The notes under the pieces were generated by a model. It saw only the letters and a list, made by a program, of their open reading frames with translations, had not been told where the DNA came from and did no database searches. DNA of 64,000 nt from Octopus vulgaris (lineage: Eukaryota), in assembly GCA_951406725.2 (NCBI GenBank), contig OX597815.1:64542001-64606000 (forward strand). Direction: 5' to 3'. The position numbers and the translations under genes were made by a program. The first letter of the stretch is position 1. Each line of letters begins with the position of its first letter. Positions 860 to 57,262 of this stretch are shown here, in pieces.

Positions 860-1730
860 AATCCACAAACATCGAATAAACAGTTTACAATGGAGAAGCA
901 ACCGCTGTCATACACTTTGAGAAATATCCAAATACCACTAAGAAAATTGTATTTAACGTTCCTCGACGAGAAAACAGGAAAGGTCAACAAGCGTTTGCAC
1001 TGGGGGCCTTCTTTTGTTCGTGAACCCATCCACCACAGCTAGGTTCGGCTTTAAATTCCGAACGTTCTTGCCACAGATAAAATACCTCGAGAGCTTAGAA
1101 GCTGACTTAATGAATACAATAATGATGGTAAGGTTTCAGCATCGTTCTAATTCTTTAAGCAACTACATCGCATGAAGCAATCCTCTAATGTACACATCCT
1201 TGCAGATAAAACAAAGAACATATAGGAAATAATACTTCCACGTACGCAAGACTTCTTACAAATTCAGTCATCAAAACACATAAGAAAACCAACATATCTA
1301 CATATAATGACATAAACACTGATGCGAAAGAGCTCGCCATCCTTCTAAAGATGGAGGATCGCGTGGTCCACCCCGACAAGCCCACTGCCATATTACGCAT
1401 ATGACTCATAAGCCCAACTTTCTATTCTTGAATGGAGTTGATGAGAACTCTCTAAGGGCGCGAAAGGCATTTCTAGCAAGCGTATTCTTAATATTATCAA
1501 CTCCAAGGACTACAGGAATGCACAACAAAAATCAACTGGTTCCGCAACATTGAGAATGAAATAGGCTGCAGGTTCACCCTGTTCGACATTGTAGATTTCT
1601 ATCTTTCAATCTCGAAATCTCTCCTCTTCAAGGCTTTAGGTTTTGGCGAGCAGTTCACCAACATCATCGAGCTCATCATATACGCTAGAAAGTCAATCTT
1701 GATTTATGATGATGGTCCCTACAGGGATAA
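860..1730 (+). mobile_element. Decayed Penelope-like element, N-terminal region and start of RT
   Basis: YTLRNIQIPLRKLYLTFLDEKTGKVNKRLHW, RFGFK...PQIKYLESLEADL, HKPNF, FDIVDFYLSISKSLLFKAL and YARKSIL are PLE RT-type motifs. Many stops and frameshifts. Confidence 0.75.
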
Positions 1731-6226: not shown

Positions 6227-7240
6227 TTATTGCTTATTTAGCTTGGGTTCGAATTTATCAATAAAATTCTTTTCTCTGATTTTCCTCTCGATTTCACTTG
6301 GGCTGTGTAATTTGTAGAATGGAAATATTATATATATTTTCCGACCACATGTTGCTAGGTGGTTACTCAAAGGTATCTGACGGACCTCTGGGTCTCTAAT
6401 CTGTTGCCGGTGTACACGTGAGCGTTCTAATAGTGCGTTTCCCGTCTGACCTACATATATTTCTTCACAATTTGGGCATTTGATGCAGTAAATTAAATTT
6501 CTGCTTTTGCAGTTCATATTCGCGTTTGTGAATATTTTCCCGGTTTTTGTGTTTATATATTGACCGGTATGTATGAATTGGCATGTGCCACATCGGCTAT
6601 CATTGCATTTAGATACCGTGAATGTTTGGTCTTTGTTGCTGAGGTCAAATTTTGCCTTTGTTAGTAATGTTTTCAAGTTTTTAGGCTGTCTTTTACTAAG
6701 CACCATAGCTCGATCCTTGATTATGTCTTTTAATTCATTACTTTGGGCAATGATTGGTAGGTTTGCTTTGGCAATGTTGAAGATATTCTGGTGACATGGG
6801 TTGTGTGTCACTATGAATGGTATGACTTGTTCTTGTTTTCCTCTTCCTTGGGTTGTCCTAAGTTGTTGTATAGGTATTTTTATAGCCCGCTGTATGCCAT
6901 TTTCTATAAGTAGAGATGGGTATTTTTGTTTGAGCAAAAATTCTCTTAGTTCTATTAGGCGTTTGTTCCTGATATTTGCATCTTCTACAATAGTACAAAT
7001 TCTTCTGGCTAGGCAGTATGGGATGTTACGTTTTGTATGTGGTGGATGGCACGACTTAAAATTTAGGTATTGATGTGTGTCTGTGTGTTTATAGTATATA
7101 TCTGTGGTGATGGTGGTGTCTTTTTTAATTACCATTATATCCAGGAATGGTAATTTGGTACTACTCATCTCCTTTGTAAATTTGAGAGATGGGTGTAGGT
7201 TGTTCAGGAGGATATTGAACTCTTCCAGAGTATTTAGAGA
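6227..7240 (-). CDS. PLE RT thumb + Cys linker + GIY-YIG endonuclease (5'-truncated, open frame)
   Basis: LPFLDIMV, IYYKHTDTHQYLNFKSCHP, CNDSRCGTC linker, NLIYCIKCPNCEEIYVGQT...RSRVH...NH, REKNFIDKFEPKLN. Confidence 0.93.
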   Translation of the reverse strand, partial: SLNTLEEFNILLNNLHPSLKFTKEMSSTKLPFLDIMVIKKDTTITTDIYYKHTDTHQYLNFKSCHPPHTKRNIPYCLARRICTIVEDANIRNKRLIELREFLLKQKYPSLLIENGIQRAIKIPIQQLRTTQGRGKQEQVIPFIVTHNPCHQNIFNIAKANLPIIAQSNELKDIIKDRAMVLSKRQPKNLKTLLTKAKFDLSNKDQTFTVSKCNDSRCGTCQFIHTGQYINTKTGKIFTNANMNCKSRNLIYCIKCPNCEEIYVGQTGNALLERSRVHRQQIRDPEVRQIPLSNHLATCGRKIYIIFPFYKLHSPSEIERKIREKNFIDKFEPKLNKQ

Positions 7241-7282
7241 TTATGCCCTACACACCGTCTAAGCAATTTTATTGACATTGTT

Positions 7283-8187
7283 TTGAAACCACTATGTACT
7301 TACATACCAAGTTTCATCAGGGATGACATCGACTTCCTGTCCCATCTTCCCAAAACAACAGAAACAAATTCAGTTTTACTAAGTTTTGATGTGGTAAGCC
7401 TCTACACCAATATTCCACACGATTTAGGAATAAAGGCGATTAAATACTGGTTAGAAAAACATAGAGAAGTGATTCCCAGCAGATTCACAGTGCCATTTAT
7501 ATTAGACACAGTCAAACTTATTCTAGAAAATAACACATTCTTCTTCAATGGAAAGAATTACATCCAAATTAGAGGCACGGCGATGGGAACGAGGTTTGCT
7601 CCCGTTTACGCCAACTCTGTAATGGGATACTTAGAAGAACAACTCTACCAAGAGGTGGAGGTAAACTATGGCACTGGATTTAGAAAGTATATTGAAAAGG
7701 CATGGAAGAGATACCTAGACGACTGTTTTATAATCTGGACAGAATCTCTAAATACTCTGGAAGAGTTCAATATCCTCCTGAACAACCTACACCCATCTCT
7801 CAAATTTACAAAGGAGATGAGTAGTACCAAATTACCATTCCTGGATATAATGGTAATTAAAAAGACACCACCATCACCACAGATATATACTATAAACACA
7901 CAGACACACATCAATACCTAAATTTTAAGTCGTGCCATCCACCACATACAAAACGTAACATCCCATACTGCCTAGCCAGAAGAATTTGTACTATTGTAGA
8001 AGATGCAAATATCAGGAACAAACGCCTAATAGAACTAAGAGAATTTTTGCTCAAACAAAAATACCCATCTCTACTTATAGAAAATGGCATACAGCGGGCT
8101 ATAAAAATACCTATACAACAACTTAGGACAACCCAAGGAAGAGGAAAACAAGAACAAGTCATACCATTCATAGTGACACACAACCCA
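7283..8187 (+). pseudogene. PLE reverse transcriptase core (1-nt frameshift near 7860)
   Basis: SFDVVSLYTNIP, QIRGTAMGTRFAPVYAN, WKRYLDDCFIIW, LPFLDIMV. The A-run is A5 here versus A6 in the minus copy. Confidence 0.93.
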
Positions 8188-40067: not shown

Positions 40068-40469
40068 TTTTACTCTTTTATTTGTTTCAGTCATTTGACT
40101 GTGGCCATGCTTGAGCACCGCCTTTAGTCGAGTAAATCGACCCCAGAACTTATTCTTTGTAAGCCTAGTACTTATTCTATCGGTCTCTCTTGCCGAACTG
40201 CTAGGTGACGGGGACGGAAACACACCAGCATCGGTTGTCAAGCGATGTTGGGGGGACAAACACAGACACACAAACACATACATATATATGTATATATACA
40301 TATATACGACGGGCTTCTTTTAGTTTCCGTCTGCCAGATCCACTCACAAGGCTTTGGTCGGCCCGAGGCTATAGTAGAAGACATTTGCTCAAGGTGCCAC
40401 GCAGTGGGACTGAACCCGGAACCATATGGTTGGTAAGCAAGCTACTTACCACACAGCTACTCCTATGCC
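40067..40469 (-). mobile_element. SINE family 1, full length
   Basis: High-identity reverse complement of 48689-49168. Confidence 0.93.
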
Positions 40470-40510: not shown

Positions 40511-40544
40511 ATACACACACAAGAATTTAATATCCAAGGATTTA

Positions 40545-41015
40545 ATTTCTTCCTTTCTCTTCTGGTGGCTTCAAATTATTTGGTTCCGATGGTGATGAAA
40601 TACCACCAGTTGGTACGCTCACGGGTTTGTGTTTCAAACTATTTAGGTTGAAATTCAGCAGCTACAGGTGTTATTTTGAGTTGGTCCTAGTACTTTCAAA
40701 GAGGACCACCTCTGGTCTTTTCCCTGAAGTAAGCTCGCTTCATAAGTCTTTACGTGGGAACATTGCCTCTTCCATTTTTACTACATGTCCTGATCATCAA
40801 AGACAGAGTTTCATGGTCAGCGATTCATTGCCTTGACTGTTAGCTCAGTCCAGCTGGTGAAAGCGTTCTAATTTTTGGATGTCGCGTCGAAATAGCGTCC
40901 AGGATTCGCTGCCATATAGAAAGGTTGAAATGACAGCATTATAGAGCATAATTGTTGTTGCTAAGTATAGATTTTTGCTGTTGAAGTCGCGTTTGATTAG
41001 CTTTCGAAATGGCCC
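40545..41015 (-). mobile_element. RTE-clade LINE 3' remnant
   Basis: LYNAVISTFLYGSESWTL...KLERFHQ...ELTSGKRP.GGP..KY.DQLK...RTNW. Confidence 0.82.
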
Positions 41016-41039
41016 GTGTGCAATTTCAATTATGTGTTT

Positions 41040-44000
41040 CTCACCATTTTCTGAGGTTCATTTGTTTGATAAAAAGCTGGGATGTTAAGTATTTTAATTT
41101 GTGATGAGAAAGATGAAAGGATTTTGTAGTGCCTTTGGATTTTGGATTTTGGATTACACATATTTCGAAACAGATGTTGAGTTTCTTATTTTATTATAGA
41201 AAATGAATGTTTATATGATGATATTTCAAAATCCATATATATTCCGACGAAGATGTTCAGTGTTTTAATTTATGATTAAGAAATGAACTTTTTGCGATGA
41301 CACGTTTGGATTTAAATTTCGATACTTATTCCGAATGAGTTGTAGTGAGTTTTAACTCAAACGAGTCTTCAACAACTAACGTCTGAAAATAGCAACAAAA
41401 AGTATGGTTTATAATGCTGTTGTCATTTCAACCTTACTCTATGGCAGCAAATTTTGGACTCTGAAATTAGAACGCTTTCATCAGCAAAAGCTTCGATCAA
41501 TCTTGGACATCAAATGGGAACACCATGTAACCAACAACAATGTCCTGGAAAGAGCTAACAGTCAAGGCAATGAATCGCTGATCATGAAACATTGTCTTTA
41601 GATGGTCAGAACATGTAGCAAAAATGGAAGAGGCGATGTTCCCGCGTCAAGTTTTATTCAGCGAGCTTACTTCAAAGATACTAGGACCAACCAAAATAAC
41701 ACCGAACGCAACTGGATTTGAGCCTAAATCGTTTGAAACACAAATCCGAGAGCGTACCAACTGGTGATATTCCATCACCATTGGAACCAATATTTTGACG
41801 CCACCAGAAGGCAAAGGAAGAAATCAAACGACCAGAGAAAGGCTCCTCAATTTGAAAATAAATGTTCATCTGATAATTCCTCCTCATATGTGATTCTAAA
41901 TATATTTCAAAATATATGCTGCATATTGTCATTAATGATTTGATAAGGAAAAACTATGGTATGATTCATGCTGAATTCGGATGCCATATAATATTCCGAA
42001 AGAGATGTAGAAATTGTATATTTTATCAGAAAATTATTGTTTATGTATTGATATTTTTTATTAAACACTTCACATATCTTTAGAAAGAGGTGTTGGAATT
42101 TATGGAGAGAAAATGATTGTTCATGTGAGAATATTTGGTATTTATGATTCCATATATATATATTCTGACCAAGATGCTGAGTTTTCATTTATAAATAGCT
42201 TGAAAATGATTTTTTTATGAAACCTTTGTTCTTAAGATTCCATATATATTCCAAAACGATAATGGTGTTTAAACTCTTGATCAGTAAATAAAATGTTTAT
42301 GATCATGCATTTGGGTTTAATATTCCATATATATTACCAGACAATTGTTGATTATTATAATTTATTATTAGATAATAAATGCCTATTTGAGGATACATAT
42401 TATTTACAATACCAAATATAATCGGCAAGGTATATTAAGAGTTGTATATAATTATCAGAAAGTATGTGGTTATGCATTCGCGTTTCATACTTCATATGTG
42501 GTCCAAAGTAGAGTTGAGTATTTTAATTTATGATTAGAAAGTGAATGATTTTGTGATCATACCATATATTTCGAAAAAGATGCTGCATAGTCAGATTTAG
42601 GATTTGAAAGTAAATGCATAAAACGATTACAAAAGGAATAACTATGTTGTTGTACATTCTGATTTCAGACCCTATATATATATATTCTAAAAGAAATGCT
42701 GGAGAGTTTTAATTATGGTTATAATATGAATGTTAATATGTTGATATTTTTTATCTTAGATTTAAATATACTTCGAAAATTATGTAGTGTTTTCATTTAT
42801 GATGTGAAAAGAGATACTACAATTTCTGTTTACAATTCCATATAAATATTGACCGAGATGTTGAGTGTAAAAATTTATGTTTAGAAAATTTATATTTAAT
42901 CGTTCTTACTTTTGAATCTAATATTCCATATGCATTTCGAAAGAGATGCTGAACGCTTTAATTTATAAGTAAAAAGCAACGTTTTGTGATAATACCGTAA
43001 AATTTCATACACCATATTTATACCGATAGAGGTCTTTATCTTTTATCTTTAACTCTTTTCAGTCATTACATTGCAGTCACGCTGGAGCAACAGCTTGAAT
43101 ACTTTTAGTCGAACGAATCGACCCCAGAACTTATTTCCTTTTAAGGCTGATACTTAATCTATTTGTACCATACATATTCTGAAATCGATGTTGTATAAAT
43201 TCTTATGCAATTAGGAAATGGATGATAGTGTGATGCTATCCTCGGATTTAAGATTTCATATATATGGACGTTCAATGTTTTAATATTAGATAAGAAAATT
43301 AATGTTCTGTGGTGATACCTTTATACTTCAGACGCATATATTTTCCGAAAACGATACGTTGTTATGGTGATACATTTCCACTTAAAATTCCGTATATATT
43401 CCTAAAGAGATGTAGAATGTTTTAATTTATGATCCGAAGATTACTGAATTTGGATTTTAAATTCCATATAACAGGTCTTCTGTTATTTAATTTCAGATTT
43501 GGAAATAAAAGCCAATGTGATGATTACTTTTTATTTAAGATTTCAAATATAAACAGAAATTATGTTGAGTGATTTATTTTAAGTTTAGAAACTGAATAAC
43601 TATATGTTGATACATTTTGCTTTCAGGTTTCATATACATTCTAGAACAGATGTTGGTTCTTTTCATTTGTGATTAAGAAATGCATGTCAATATCTTGATA
43701 CTTTTCTATTTAAGATTTCATAAATAGGGAGATTAAATGTTTATATTTATGCTGACAAAATGAAAGTTTATCTTATTTTGTATTTAAGGTTCCATGTATA
43801 TTTCCAAAGTGCTGTTAAGATTTAGAAAATGAATGTTTATACGAAGATATTTAGTATTTTTGATTCCATATATATTCTGATAGAGATGATGAATGTTTGG
43901 ATTTCTGATTAAACTATTGATGCTTTAGGGTGGATAAATCACAGATATTTCAAAATCGACGTTGCGATTTAAATCTTTTATTAGAAAATATTTCCATTGT

Positions 44001-45890
44001 TATTTATGAAATTACAAATGCATTATAAAAGTGATCTTGTAAGTTCAAATTTATGATTTGTCACTTAATAATGATGAGGTGATACGTTTGTATTTTATTC
44101 CCTATATAGATTCTGAAAGACTTGCATATTTCAGTTTATGATTACAAAATGAGCGTTTATGTTTTGATAGTTTGGATTTAAGAGTTCATATACATTTCAA
44201 AAGAAATGTTGAATGATTTAAAACATGACTGGAAAATGAATATTTAGAGAAGGTATGTTGTATTTCATATGCGAAATATATCCCGAAAGAGGCGATATTG
44301 AGTATTTAATTTCTGCTTAGGAAATGAAATATTTTGCGATATATATTCCGTAGTCGATGCTGAGTGTTGTAAATTTTGATTAATAAATGTACGGTGCCAT
44401 GAGGATACATTTTGATTTAAGATACCATGTATATACCGAAAGAAATATTGACTGTTTTCATTTACGATCAGAAAATGAAGTCATGATACATTTTGCTTTG
44501 AGACAACATATACATATTAAAATAGATGTTGCATATTTTCTTTGTGATTAGAAAATGAATGTATACGCATTTTGGATTTACGTGTTTACGTGTTTTGGAT
44601 TTAAACTTTTATACATATTCTGAGAAAAGATTTCCTATGATATAATTTATGAGACGAAAATTAATGTTGAATGTCATGCTGTTCTAATTAAGAATCCATA
44701 TATGTCCCATAGTGATGTACAGTGATTTAATTTATGATTACAAAATGAATAGCTATGTGGTGATGCATTTGTATTTCAGACTCCATATGTATTGCAAAAG
44801 TGATGTTGAGTGATTTATTTCATGCTTAGAATGTGAATGCGTTTTTTTCTGATGATTCATTGAACATGCATGTCTATCTATCCTAAAAAGGAAGATGTTC
44901 AGCGTTTTCATTTATGATCAGAAGTTGAATATTTATTTGATAATAACTTTGCATTTAATATTGCGTATATATTCCCGAATGCAATGTCTTGTATTTACGA
45001 TTAGAAAGTGAATATCCTGCAATGATACCTTTGAATTTCAAACTCCATATATATTCCGAAATACTTGTTCGATGTTTTTACATTCTGAAAGAGATGTTGA
45101 GTGTTTTAATTTATCATTATAAAATTAATAAGTATGCGGTGTTACATTTTTATTTAAGACATCATAATATTATGAAAGAAATGTAAGATATTTTAATTTA
45201 GAAAATGAATCTTTATATGCTGATATTTTTGGATTTAATTTACATTTATATTTCGAAAGCAATGTTGAGATTTTTAAGGATCTAAAAATTGTATGGTTAT
45301 ATGATGATATTTTGTATTTATGATTCCAAAAATATTCCAACCGACACATTGACTTATAATTAAAGAATAAATTATTTTGTGATAATATATTGAATCTAAG
45401 TGCCCACATATATTCAGAATGTGATGTTGTGTATTTTCATTTAGTATAAGGAAATGAATATCTTTGTCATGATACCTATGGAATTAATATACCATGTATA
45501 TTCCGAAGCAATGTTAAGTGTTTTAATCTATGAGTATAAAGTGAACCTTTATATGATGATACATGTGGAATTCAGTTTCCAAAATAATGCTGAGCGTTTT
45601 AATTCATTTGGAATAAGTGCTTTGTCATAATAATTTTTGATTTAAGGTTCCATATATATTCCGAAACTGCCGTCGCATTTACATTTACGATTCGATAATG
45701 AATCTTTATGCGTGATGATAGCTTTGAATTTAAGATTCCATATATTTTACCCAAGAGATGTTGGCTTTTTTATTTTGATTGGAAAATTAATATTTATATG
45801 ATGATACCTTTGGATTATTTCTATTCCATATATATTCCGAATGTGATAAAGCATTTTAATTTATAATTAGAAAATTAATGTCTATGTGAC
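41040..45890. repeat. Diverged satellite, ~87-88 bp monomer, roughly 45-50 copies
   Basis: By-eye consensus CCATATATATTCCGAAAGAGATGTTGAGTGTTTTAATTTATGATTAGAAAATGAATGTTTATATGATGATACATTTGGATTTAAGATT. Anchors e.g. 42838/42926/43012, 44696/44783 and 45650/45738/45826. One more unit at ~47800-47882. Confidence 0.88.
41355..41830 (+). mobile_element. RTE-clade LINE 3' remnant within the satellite
   Basis: VYNAVVISTLLYGSKFWT...LERFHQQKLRSILDIKWEHHVTNNNVLERA...HVAKME..FPRQVLFSEL. Confidence 0.85.
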
Positions 45891-46078
45891 TGTGTGGTTA
45901 GAAGCTTGCTTCCTAACCACAATGTTCTGGTTTCAGTCCCACTGCATGACACCTTGAGCAACTGTCTTCTATTATAGTCTTGAGCCAACCAAATCCTTGT
46001 GAGTGGAATAGGTAGACGGAAACTGAGAGAATCCTGATGTATTTATATATATGTATATATATATACACACATACATAT

Positions 46079-46155
<77 letters not shown>

Positions 46156-46157
<2 letters not shown>

Positions 46158-47425
46158 AGGATTGGAGAAAATAATGGAAACACCTAGCATCATAGTATCA
46201 TAATTTTGAAATATCTATCAAACCATCAAAAGCTTATTTATTTTTTTATTATTCTTTTTAGTGTTGCTTAATACGTTTTGCTAAAATTGGTGTTTCTTTT
46301 CAGATAACATAAGAAAAAGGTCATTAAAATTCATTAAAATGACAGATCTATCGGACTTTCAAAGAGGTCAAATTGTTGGTGCTCGTATAGCATGCGCTAG
46401 CGCAACGAAAACAGCCGAAATGTTTGGTGTATCAAGAAGTACTGTCTCGAAAGTAATGACAGCCTTTGAAAAAGAGGGAAAAACCTCCTCATCGAAACAA
46501 AACTCTGGAAGAAAACCAAAACTTTCAGATAGGGACCGTCGGATTCTTACGCGAATTGTTAGAAGGGATCAGAAATGTTCATCTCCCAAAATTACTGCAG
46601 AGCTTAATGACCACCTCGAGAACCCAGTTTCCACAAAAACTGTTCGACGTAAGCTGCACAAAGCCGGATTTCACGGGAGGGCTGCTATCAGAAAACCACT
46701 ACTTTCAAAAACAAACGTTACATAGCGTTTAGAGTGGAGTGAAAACCTACAGAATTGGTCTCTAGAGCAGTGGAAGAATGTTATTTTCTCGGACGAGTCA
46801 TCCTTTACCATATTTCCAACCCCGGCTGAAGATACGTGTGTAGACAGCGAAAAGAAGCATTTGATCCAGACTGCCTTCTCCAAACAATCAAACATGGAGG
46901 GGGATCTGTGATCATCTGTGGGGGAGGGGCTATATCTTGGAAATTCGCCGGCCCTATGGTTTTTCCTCATAGCAGAATTAATAGCCAAGACTATTTAAGC
47001 ATTTTATCTTATTGAGTTCATCCTATGGTTGCGGAACTGTTTCTGGAAGGAAACGCAATCTTTCAGGATGATAATGCACCAATTCACACAGCTTAAGTCG
47101 TAACTGAATGGCACGAGAAACATTCTAGTGAAGATGGACATCTTATCTGGTCACCACAGTCTTTAGATCCCAATATTATTGAACATTTATGGTGCATTTT
47201 AGAAAAACAAGTGAGGAGTCGATATCCCCCATCATCATCTCTATAAGAACTGGAGGCTGTTTTAGCTGAAGAATGGACAAAAACTCCTTTGGAAACAATT
47301 CAAACTTTGTACCAGTCCATACCCCGTAGAATTCAAGCTGTAACTACTACCAAAGGCGGTCCTACCCATATCAAAATAAATTAGTTTGAAATCTTAAGGT
47401 GTTTCCAGTATTTTTCCAACCCCTG
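46156..47425 (+). mobile_element. Full-length decayed Tc1-like transposon with DD36E spacing
   Basis: TIRs CAAGGATTGGAGAAAATAATGGAAACACCT / AGGTGTTTCCAGTATTTTTCCAACCCCTG with TA flanks. ORF from 46339 (MTDLSDFQRGQIVGAR, SGRKPKL, FSDES, FQDDNAPIH, SLDPNIIEHLW) has stops and frameshifts. Confidence 0.95.
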
Positions 47426-47492
<67 letters not shown>

Positions 47493-47497
<5 letters not shown>

Positions 47498-47647
47498 GAA
47501 TTCTCAACAAAAAAAAATGACGAAGACGGGTGGTGTAGACAACAAACAGATGTATTAGTTTAACATTTCGAGCCTACGCTTTTCCAAAGAAAGGAACACA
47601 GAAACAAATAATGATAGAAAATAAAGAATGTGTAGTGGCTAGCGATC
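47493..47647 (-). mobile_element. Solo pLTR fragment of the 23721-25422 PLE family
   Basis: Reverse complement matches 25242-25420, including AGC-GTAG-GCTC GAAA. Confidence 0.85.
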
Positions 47648-48028
47648 AAACGTATACGTATCTATGTGTGTCTTTGTGTCTGTATTTGTCCTCCCAGCGC
47701 TTTAAAAAATCAACTACTAGGAATGATTTATTCGGCGAAAAATTTAAGTCGGTGCCCCAGCATGGCCGCATTCTAATGACTGAAACAAGTAAAAGATAAG
47801 ATACTTTGGGATTTAAGATTCCATAAATATTCCCAAGCGATTTTGAGTGTTTTAATTTAATATTAGAAAATGAATGATTGTGTGTGAGAGAGTGTGTGTG
47901 CGTGCGTGCGTGCGTACATATATATATATGCATGTATATATGCATATATATGCACATATATATATATATGTATATATATATGTATGCATATATATATATA
48001 CATATATGTAAATGTGTGGGTGGGTGTG

Positions 48029-53374: not shown

Positions 53375-53898
53375 TCAACGAGGAGTTTGCATATTAAGTT
53401 GTGTTTGGAATTTTTCAATAAAGAGATTCTCCTTGTTAATTCTCTCCTGTGTGGTGATCCCGTCTTTACATTGGTAGAAGGGGAATATATAGAATTTGGG
53501 GTTTAAGTCTTTAGCACATGAGTCTAAGTGGTCACTCAGTGGAATTTGTCGGTATTCCGGGAGATTTATTTGTTCTTTATGCACCGTTACTCGTTTACGT
53601 AACGGGAGACTCGTTTGTCCAACATAATTATGTTGGCAACCAGCGCATGTGAGAACGTAGATAAGGTTCTCGGAGGAACAGGAGAAGTTAGTCTTGATTT
53701 TAAACTTCGTACCTTGTTTGAAGGTAAATTCAGAGCCTTCAAGTAGAAAGGGGCAGGTACCACAGTTTGAGCGTGCACATTTTTTTACTGTTGGGGGTGG
53801 ATGTGGTGTGTGAAGTTTGGCATTTGTCAAGAGTTTTTTTTAAGATTTGTGTTGCCTTTTGCATTTGAGGATTTTGTGTGTATTTATAATGTTTTTCA
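53375..53898 (-). CDS. PLE Cys linker + GIY-YIG endonuclease (5'-truncated)
   Basis: CARSNCGTCPFL, CSSENLIYVLTCAGCQHNYVGQTSLPLRKRVTVH...PLSDHLDSC...FPFY. Homologous to 6227-6740. Confidence 0.92.
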
Positions 53899-54583: not shown

Positions 54584-57262
54584 TCCGATGTCGCTGTATT
54601 ATCAATTTGTTCATATAATCGGAAGAAACCTCACCAAATATTTTCCCCTGAAGGGGAAATATTTCCGATATTGGTCTCGGGCGTCTGACGAATACGCATA
54701 TATGCGCTTAGGAAACTTTGAGAAATGTTGGTCTGAGTCAACTTGTTGAATTCTTACAACTCCAACTATATGAATGTTTCCTTCTGCTTGATTTTACACA
54801 TATATATACACACATATAGATAAATGGATAGATAGATACATATATACATACATAAGTGTGCGTGTGTGTGTGTGTTGTAGAAAAATTACTCATTGCAATT
54901 TTTAGTTGTACTCAGGCGGTTGCCACCTCCTTCTTAAAAAATTATTTAATCAGATGATGGAGCAGTTTCCATGCCCTTTCCAAATTCTTTAATAATGGGG
55001 AAATTCTTGGCGCTTTTCCTCAACTAATGCTTATTTACTCCTGTCTGGGAAAATATAGTGAGTGAAATGAATTCCAGCTTTCGCCAGTTCTAGTTGGTGA
55101 GTGTGATTCGAAAGGGGTCTAGTGCAGTGCTTAGGTGTGAGAAAGAAAGAGAGAGAGGAGGAGAGACAGACAGACAGAATGCGAGAAGTGACACACGTGT
55201 TGCGTTGACTTAGATGATATCAATACGAAGTTTTGTGGTATAAGTAAGAGAAATAGTTATAGAAGCTGTAAGAAATACAAAAAAAAAATGGTTCTTTGAA
55301 GCAGAGGTTGCAGTAGGTTTGTGTGAATATTTAGCAATCAGCTGAATAAGTTTCTTTTCGACGTGTCTACGCTATTTACTATTTACGTGAGTAGCATAGA
55401 AATTTCTGAGATAAGTGGCTTACACTTGAGATTTGTAGAAAGTCAACAAATAATCAGGGCACGAGTATTTTCTAGTCCTAAAGATGAAGCATACACACAT
55501 ATGTTTATATATATATGTGTATGTACATATATGTTTATATGTACATATATGTATATACGTATATATATGCACTTTCATATATATTTATGTAAGTGTATGT
55601 ATGCATCCGATCTCTCTCTATATATATGTACTCCCATAACATGAATTTATAGATCGTTAACGTATATTCCAGTGTTTACATATATCTGTGTGACTGTTTG
55701 TCTGTGCAGTTGACTATATCGTTAGGTTTAAGCAAACACTGAACGATGATAAATCATTAGTATTTTTATGATATATTTTGTTTTGTTACTTTATGTAACA
55801 TATTTGGTTTGTAAGACGTTGTTGCTCCTGCGAAGGAAACAAGTTTTAAACTCGACGCTTACAATCATAATAGATTGTGAGCCACCGAAGGAGTCAATCG
55901 CCCCACTAGAAATAGCAGTAAAATATTCCTCATATATTATGCTATTGTATTAAAACAAGTCCACATTAGATAAAGTGTTAGGAGGGGAAAAAAGCGGTAT
56001 ATTTACAGCTGCATCACTTTTAATGATAGATTTACTGGTTCAAGGCCGAGCATAGGCTAAACAATAACAGCAATAAAGTCTGGTTATTACAAACTTGAGG
56101 TTGCATGAGATACTTACTGGTATAATAATTTATATAACAAGTCGTTCATCTTTGGTTGTTAATGTAAAAACATATTAAACTGATCATGCACGCTGGGTGG
56201 ACTAGACTTCATGTGAGATACAAATTTAAACAATTTTCTACCAACAAGTGATAATGAGAACTGACGAAAAACTCCGATCAATGACACTGCGAGATACGTA
56301 TTTGGTATTGTGTCCATTGATGACGAGTATGGGAGACGAGATGAGAAATCAAAATTCCGCTTCAAAATCAAATCGAAGTGCTCAACCATTTCCATGATCT
56401 CAGTACTCATTCAATGCTGTCCAGTACGGTCACAAACAATTCCTTGAAACTTGTCATTACAAATTCTTCGTAGCCGATCCTATAGATTATTGTGATATCT
56501 AGGGAGCGTTTCATGAGTATGCTTTCTCATATCTTCTAATTTCTTTCTTTTCCTCCTTATAAACTGATTCAGCCTTTTTTATTTCTGCCCGAGAGCTGCG
56601 TGCAATGCAAGAGGTCATGTGTATAATTCTATACTTTACAAGGTGAGTAACGTACTCACTGCAAGAAAATATACGGAGCTTATGCAGAATACCTTTTAAG
56701 TTAGATACATCCACAATGTACATTAATTTCGGTTAAGAAATAGAATTAATTCTTCCTCTTTCTCTCTCTGTTCATTCTGAATATATTCGAAAATTAAATG
56801 ACAGTAGAACTGAAAAACTCACAAAACATAGTGGCCGTGTCTCTTGCCTCTTTAGTAGAGGTAAATGGCTGCATGTATGTATTAGATTTTGATTTGAAAT
56901 CTGGAAACATTGTATAGGCAGCTATAACTCACCTTAACACAAATAACACTGAATTTTTACTTAATAGCAACGGTATATTCTTAGCTGTATCGCTGAATAC
57001 ATTTATGATGTAGAGTGGGTTGAACCATGTTATGTTTCGGTGCCAGAGTCTAATTCTTTATAGAGGACGCTAACAGGCTACCATTTGCACACTAGCATAA
57101 TTTCTTAATAGTGGGTCGTAGTAACGGGAGCAGAATCACAGAAAATAACATGGTCAAGGCGAGAATTCACTTCCTCGTGCCATCTACAAATCGTTGGGGA
57201 TGGTACGATTTATTGCGTCTGTATATTGTGTACTGATATAAATGTTGGGGTGTATATTTGTG

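Follow-up and report, generated by a model that had tools for sequence, protein, structure and literature searches.

The window analysed here is a 64,000-nucleotide stretch of Octopus vulgaris DNA (contig OX597815.1), AT-rich animal sequence in which microsatellites are frequent. Between 41040 and 45890 it holds a diverged tandem repeat, to which the first-pass annotation had assigned a period of ~87–88 bp. The repeat is real: 88 is the top lag of 6-mer matches within 41040–45890, and lags of 80–95 collect 189 such matches, against 57 ± 10 in 20 shuffles. TRF, which had been put forward as the means of defining period and consensus, does not report the array at a score of 50 or 30 because the copies are too diverged. 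The copies were instead aligned by cyclic profile alignment over 40900–46000. This gave 60 segments, with 37–51 copies at each column and 3938 aligned bases, corresponding to 44.75 units; the alignment score is 2675 bits, compared with 7–10 bits for three shuffles, the profile having been trained on the same data. The consensus unit is 88 nt long and the units run head-to-tail, amounting in total to ~46 unit-equivalents, which replaces the ~50-fold amplification first estimated. The array and the main features considered below, including a reverse transcriptase (RT) remnant of a Penelope element (PLE), are as follows.

905..1722, plus strand: decayed RT remnant of a Hydra-clade PLE (ADKT motif; profile positions 3–298, best piece 68.6 bits)
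41079..41358, minus strand (the endonuclease-sense strand): left block of the array, ~3 units (cyclic alignment and profile scan)
41360..41850, plus strand: LINE 3' piece inside the array (translation; unit phase nearly kept across it)
41850..43036, minus strand: middle block of the array (cyclic alignment and profile scan)
~43037..43167: presumed SINE piece inside the array (sequence; gap in the profile path)
43168..45889, minus strand: main block of the array (6-mer lags, cyclic alignment and profile scan; orthologous contig over 43625–45877)
45890..47800: nested insertion of 1.9 kb (unit cut at 45889)
47801..47885, minus strand: terminal array unit, in phase, adjoining a (GT)n/(TA)n microsatellite

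The repeat thus lies where it was first placed, at 41040–45890, but it is not continuous there and one more unit stands beyond it. This terminal unit was found by nhmmer at 47809–47884 (50.7 bits, E 9e-15); besides it, the whole-window DNA profile scan gave nothing outside the array below E 0.5. In the 39 of 60 segments with at least 60 aligned letters, on which the identity statistics are based, identity to the 88-nt consensus is 66–85%, with a mean of 78%. Two units carry partial internal duplications (45032–45148 and 42479–42616, of ~29 and 50 bases, respectively), apart from which the array shows no sign of local re-duplication.

The LINE piece at 41360–41850, which from its translated motif we take to be RTE-like, is identical at 347 of 429 aligned letters to a second piece at 40540–41020. 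The two 3' pieces, the latter on the minus strand and the former on the plus strand, flank three array units in a back-to-back arrangement and are 81% alike, with nearly the same start point and a common internal joint, and the pair suggests a deleted non-autonomous family. The piece at ~43037–43167, presumably a SINE, resembles an element at ~40090–40230. We take the 1.9-kb insertion, as read by eye, to be a SINE split by (TA)n and containing a Tc1-like transposon at ~46157–47425. This transposon has terminal inverted repeats and lies in (TA)n, in the SINE, in the array, the four nested layers at 45890–47800 giving the order of events. The unit that is cut at 45889 resumes in phase at 47801, and the SINE, (TA)n and Tc1-like sequences were therefore inserted into the array. 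The LINE, SINE and transposon insertions all came after the array had formed.

Origin of the unit

Of the six reading frames of the consensus, five contain stops and one, on the minus strand, is open for 29 codons and reads NVSSHKHSFSNHKLKHSTSLSEYIWNLK, followed by Y or S. The first-pass annotation had traced this peptide to the segment that follows the YIG motif in the endonuclease of one group of invertebrate PLEs. That group can now be named. The Hydra clade, in the available parts of Craig et al. 2021 (PMC8557442), comprises endonuclease-positive PLEs defined by a DKT motif and lacking the CCHH finger, and is known from Mollusca, including an octopus family. Fig. S2 of that paper shows the pattern R-xxx-H-xx-SF-x(7)-[ST]-T-x-L-S-x-[YH]-[IV]-W-x-L-K of the unit in its four Hydra rows and in none of the rows of the other clades. 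By eye, the octopus Hydra element in its supplement is less like the unit than are the cnidarian ones.

An independent test set was chosen without use of the monomer. It consists of 120 metagenome loci fetched by an unrelated RT motif, with flanks for 80 of them, which yielded 117 reading frames bearing that motif; the 23 that reach the C-terminus were made into a 701-position profile. The tandem consensus matches this profile at positions 607–635, ungapped and on the minus strand only, with a score of 19.8 bits that is reached by none of 5000 base shuffles (maximum, 8.6) and none of 5000 codon shuffles (maximum, 10.6). Ten columns of the segment are conserved in at least 21 of the 23 elements, and the unit matches nine of them. 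The tenth is the catalytic Arg, which falls at the unit joint, where the unit has N or K. Individual raw copies are also recognised: of the 27 rows of at least 4 bits that the Hydra profile gives in the window, the array accounts for eight, without exception on the minus strand, and the single unit at 41206–41325 scores 11.4 bits against the independent profile. The 23 elements are distant ones, sharing 8–15 of 28 residues and 30–47 of 84 bases with the unit, and no parent at the DNA level was found among them (best, 47/84 bases). Identities of 9–17 of 28 residues were obtained with 120 further endonucleases, a set collected with monomer pieces and hence not independent.

Broader searches returned little. 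Pfam gave nothing relevant for 12 read-through frames or for 18 of the 24 monomer pieces, a blank of little significance, given that even a full Hydra protein attains only E 0.47 for GIY-YIG there. A word-index protein search with the monomer alignment produced none from 3259 candidates, and a 27-position monomer profile run against 1.84 billion representatives found no PLE, its two matches being unrelated-looking tandem-repeat proteins. The ESM Atlas search gave no usable match, and viral contigs contained no exact match to a 28-base stretch of the window. A chance likeness in AT-rich DNA might be suspected, given a match of only 28 residues and nothing relevant from the library-wide profile search or Pfam, but it is most improbable, since none of the 10,000 shuffles, codon-keeping ones included, reaches the score, the residue spacing agrees without gaps and Pfam barely sees even the full protein. 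Judged on this protein-level likeness, the unit is almost certainly a fragment of a Hydra-clade PLE endonuclease, from the helix region after YIG.

Decay and age of the array

The copies show no sign of coding selection, since their changes fall into synonymous, non-synonymous and stop classes (88/350/48) as expected neutrally (88.5/351/46.5). Divergence is 22.6, 19.8 and 21.8% at the three codon positions (p 0.22). With a length of 88 nt and changes at neutral rates, the unit is not coding now, as had been proposed. The array is a non-coding, decayed tandem repeat and, consisting of head-to-tail non-coding units, is satellite DNA in the broad sense of the term. It is likely to have no function today. 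No RNA run among the listed public runs holds the stretch; run X10, which is guessed to be RNA, covers 20 of 30 bins.

Pairwise identity between copies is 64.8% in the 39 segments, close to the 65.4% expected if each had decayed independently. Neighbouring copies are no more alike than others (64.1% versus 64.8%; p 0.9), and no distance trend, gradient or higher-order period was found along the array. The stretch, or part of it, occurs in 20 of the 24 listed public runs, four of which were used for an orthologue comparison over 43170–45885. Run X18, from organism E, contributes a contig of 2301 letters spanning 43625–45877 at single-copy depth; the alignment contains 133 differences along with 34 gap letters. 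Orthologous copies are therefore ~94% alike, compared with 65% between copies within the array. A related organism thus holds the orthologous array at ~94%, from which it follows that the array is old and has not been homogenised; it is about eight times older than the split from organism E. The concerted evolution that marks a classical satellite is not seen, likeness being greater between orthologues than within the array. We conclude that formation of the array took a short time compared with its age and that no homogenisation has followed, and that a burst followed by a freeze is very likely its history.

Unit joints, flanks and amplification

The unit length has a counterpart in the endonuclease. 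All 23 elements have F-K ahead of the segment, and in 21 of them it ends with L-K, exactly 29 codons later; 106 of 120 endonucleases in the larger, non-independent set keep the same register. The unit is as long as this FK–LK spacing (87 nt) plus one base, and its joint falls in the same register. The F-K and L-K codons would mark the points between which the first unit was excised, the extra base being added at the joint, and the TTAAA that these codons would share in an AT-rich parent may have set the ends. Six of the 41 contiguous joints are without one base, a loss that would restore the frame. The dimorphic columns that pass the Bonferroni limit are 85, 2, 80 and 40, and the two least compatible with one ancestral base lie at the joint, within six bases of each other; linkage across the joint is not significant (p 0.15). 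An excess of T-to-G changes is seen in both TTAAA contexts, at column 40 in the unit body (10/46 copies) and at column 80 at the joint (11/45 copies), and is possibly context-dependent mutation. The variation at the junctions may, at least in part, reflect such mutation or alignment noise in A-runs.

Three routes to the array had been suggested: RT template jumping, a small circular template and unequal crossing-over. These results speak against slow unequal crossing-over accompanied by homogenisation; a circle and RT jumping look alike here. On balance, we lean towards a burst in which a small circle or a re-copied template of endonuclease origin was amplified, the product then being left to mutate. 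Amplification would have taken place away from the parent, either on an excised circle, by rolling-circle copying, or with the RT re-priming repeatedly, a step that we infer. The product would have been inserted here and probably elsewhere, after which the array froze and mutated. Given both an endonuclease origin and a burst followed by a freeze, amplification at a distance from the parent is the somewhat likelier course. It is favoured over growth in place by the lack of Hydra-type flanks together with the hint of a second array.

As regards the flanks, the Hydra profile found no Hydra-type RT or endonuclease halves beside the array in the window. The peptide at its left end, ENGEKHIIEIAH, was rejected as a PLE flank: compared with the columns that lie downstream in the endonuclease, it scored −3.8, which does not reach the 95th percentile obtained with random windows. 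Parental flanks can have disappeared or been displaced by insertions; younger repeats adjoin the array at both ends. The hint of a second locus comes from one 75-letter piece present in two runs. In runs X4 and X8, the contig matching at 45082 crosses a unit junction without loss of phase. Counted by eye, the loose ends there agree with the consensus at 21 and 22 of 30 letters, and the window does not contain the 20 letters searched from the X4 end. A genome of such size should yield short 80% matches by chance alone, and baseline read depth over the array is single-copy. Two further ends of this kind in X4, located at 43396 and 44750, were discarded, as they belong to the array's own left part (~41961 and 42547). 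Foreign-looking pieces of 34–45 letters near 80% were likewise dropped, being expected by chance, and one further loose end, absent from the window but of unclear phase, was not counted.

Growth in place would start from a microhomology duplication within a resident Hydra copy and proceed by fast unequal crossing-over or slippage, with the flanks later lost or displaced. The FK/LK register fits such a local duplication equally well, and the star-like pattern of the copies is also what fast local expansion by unequal crossing-over followed by long decay produces. We nevertheless consider it rather unlikely: flanks are wanting even though a comparably decayed remnant in the window scores 68.6 bits, the left-end peptide does not resemble downstream endonuclease, neighbouring copies are no more similar than distant ones and higher-order periods are missing, and there is the hint of a second locus. 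The array might otherwise have formed elsewhere and been carried here as a block, whether by a non-autonomous element or in a segmental copy. The hint of a second locus would agree with this, as would the dimorphic columns if they show variants already present in the founding array, and short arrays borne by transposable elements are common according to the available text of a 2025 review (PMC12692304). Set against this, no carrier ends were recognised, Rfam gave no match in the window and no hammerhead core was found in the unit, the array ends adjoin a LINE piece and a microsatellite, and the variants are unlinked to columns of the unit body; transport as a block is distinctly improbable.

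A more specific form of amplification from a re-copied template can be envisaged. The RTs of PLEs are the sister group of telomerase, and the array could be a fossil of reiterative synthesis by such an enzyme, which would have re-primed dozens of times on an 87–88-nt RNA stretch between TTAAA repeats, giving variable joints and uniform bodies, with insertion beside a microsatellite and a dispersed family as further consequences. We hold this to be speculative and improbable. If the joints were indeed scars of re-priming, they would be genomic evidence that PLE RTs repeatedly copy a short template.

Comparison with other repeats and PLE copies

The unit retains the conserved H, SF, T, LS, W and LK of Hydra-clade elements at the same spacing after YIG, but it is only 28–29 codons long and is without RT, YIG, catalytic Arg/Glu, ribozyme or terminal repeat, and so is not mobile. 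An intact, autonomous PLE carries RT and a full GIY-YIG domain in one frame, with the catalytic Arg; the 88-nt unit does not.

Satellites derived from transposable elements, PLEs included, are already known, and the array is a clear new example. The review cited above (PMC12692304), in the portions available, names Penelope elements among satellite sources and gives ~10% as the usual divergence of satellites. As in the cases it describes, part of a transposable element has here been made tandem; the present array differs in that a sub-domain of the coding core makes up its unit, its length is only ~4 kb, concerted evolution is absent and pairwise divergence is 35% rather than ~10%. HviSat02-2707 of Harttia catfish is described as Penelope-related in the accessible text of PMC11955569; its unit is long (2707 in its name), compared with 88 nt here. 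Non-LTR retrozymes are nearer in size. The excerpted account (10.64898/2026.07.22.740005) presents them as short, PLE-derived tandem repeats for which rolling-circle amplification is proposed, with an origin proposed in the terminal pLTR of PLEs and with a hammerhead. The array is likewise short in unit, PLE-derived and tandem, but its unit comes from the endonuclease coding region, lacks a hammerhead core and is less structured than shuffles, the consensus dimer being no more stable than these (z +1.3 and +0.9). Assignment as a non-LTR retrozyme was rejected, there being no Rfam match in the window and no hammerhead core pattern in the consensus.

Among the titles and opening lines of abstracts searched, none describes either the repeat of this array or a satellite whose unit was taken from the coding sequence of a PLE endonuclease; the available parts of PMC7859515 and PMC9977147 likewise contain no such satellite. 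Most satellite units cannot be traced to a source. In this array, the source codons, likely breakpoints and order of later insertions can be read, and the origin was recoverable by reading the consensus at the protein level although the copies are 35% apart and TRF misses them. A fragment of an old, perhaps extinct, PLE family also survives in the array.

Other PLE copies are present in the window. The decayed element at 860–1730 had been suggested to belong to the source clade. Its RT remnant, at 905–1722, is of Hydra type and so of the same clade, but it lies 39 kb from the array, ends before the endonuclease and cannot be demonstrated to be the parent family; a word-index protein search with it gave none from 144 candidates. 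Very decayed Hydra-type pieces at 56586–56774 (plus strand) and 56900–57228 (minus strand) stand in inverted order and include the endonuclease stretch; at the DNA level they do not resemble the unit, their score being reached by 16 of 300 shuffles. Two endonuclease-like matches, at 6359–6517 and at 53525–53683 (minus strand), were rejected as parents as they are of the CCHH type, the latter by eye. DNA of the CCHH-type copy in the window does not match that of the unit (25 of 300 shuffles reach the score), and by eye the post-YIG rows of Neptune, Naiad and Poseidon in Fig. S2, as available, differ from it (PMC8557442).

A CCHH-type PLE is well preserved at 6230–7260 on the minus strand, with an open frame over the RT end and endonuclease, and is presumably Neptune-like. 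An inverted partner, identical to it in the translated overlap, lies at 7360–8170 on the plus strand, and the pair has the inverted insertion form of PLEs.
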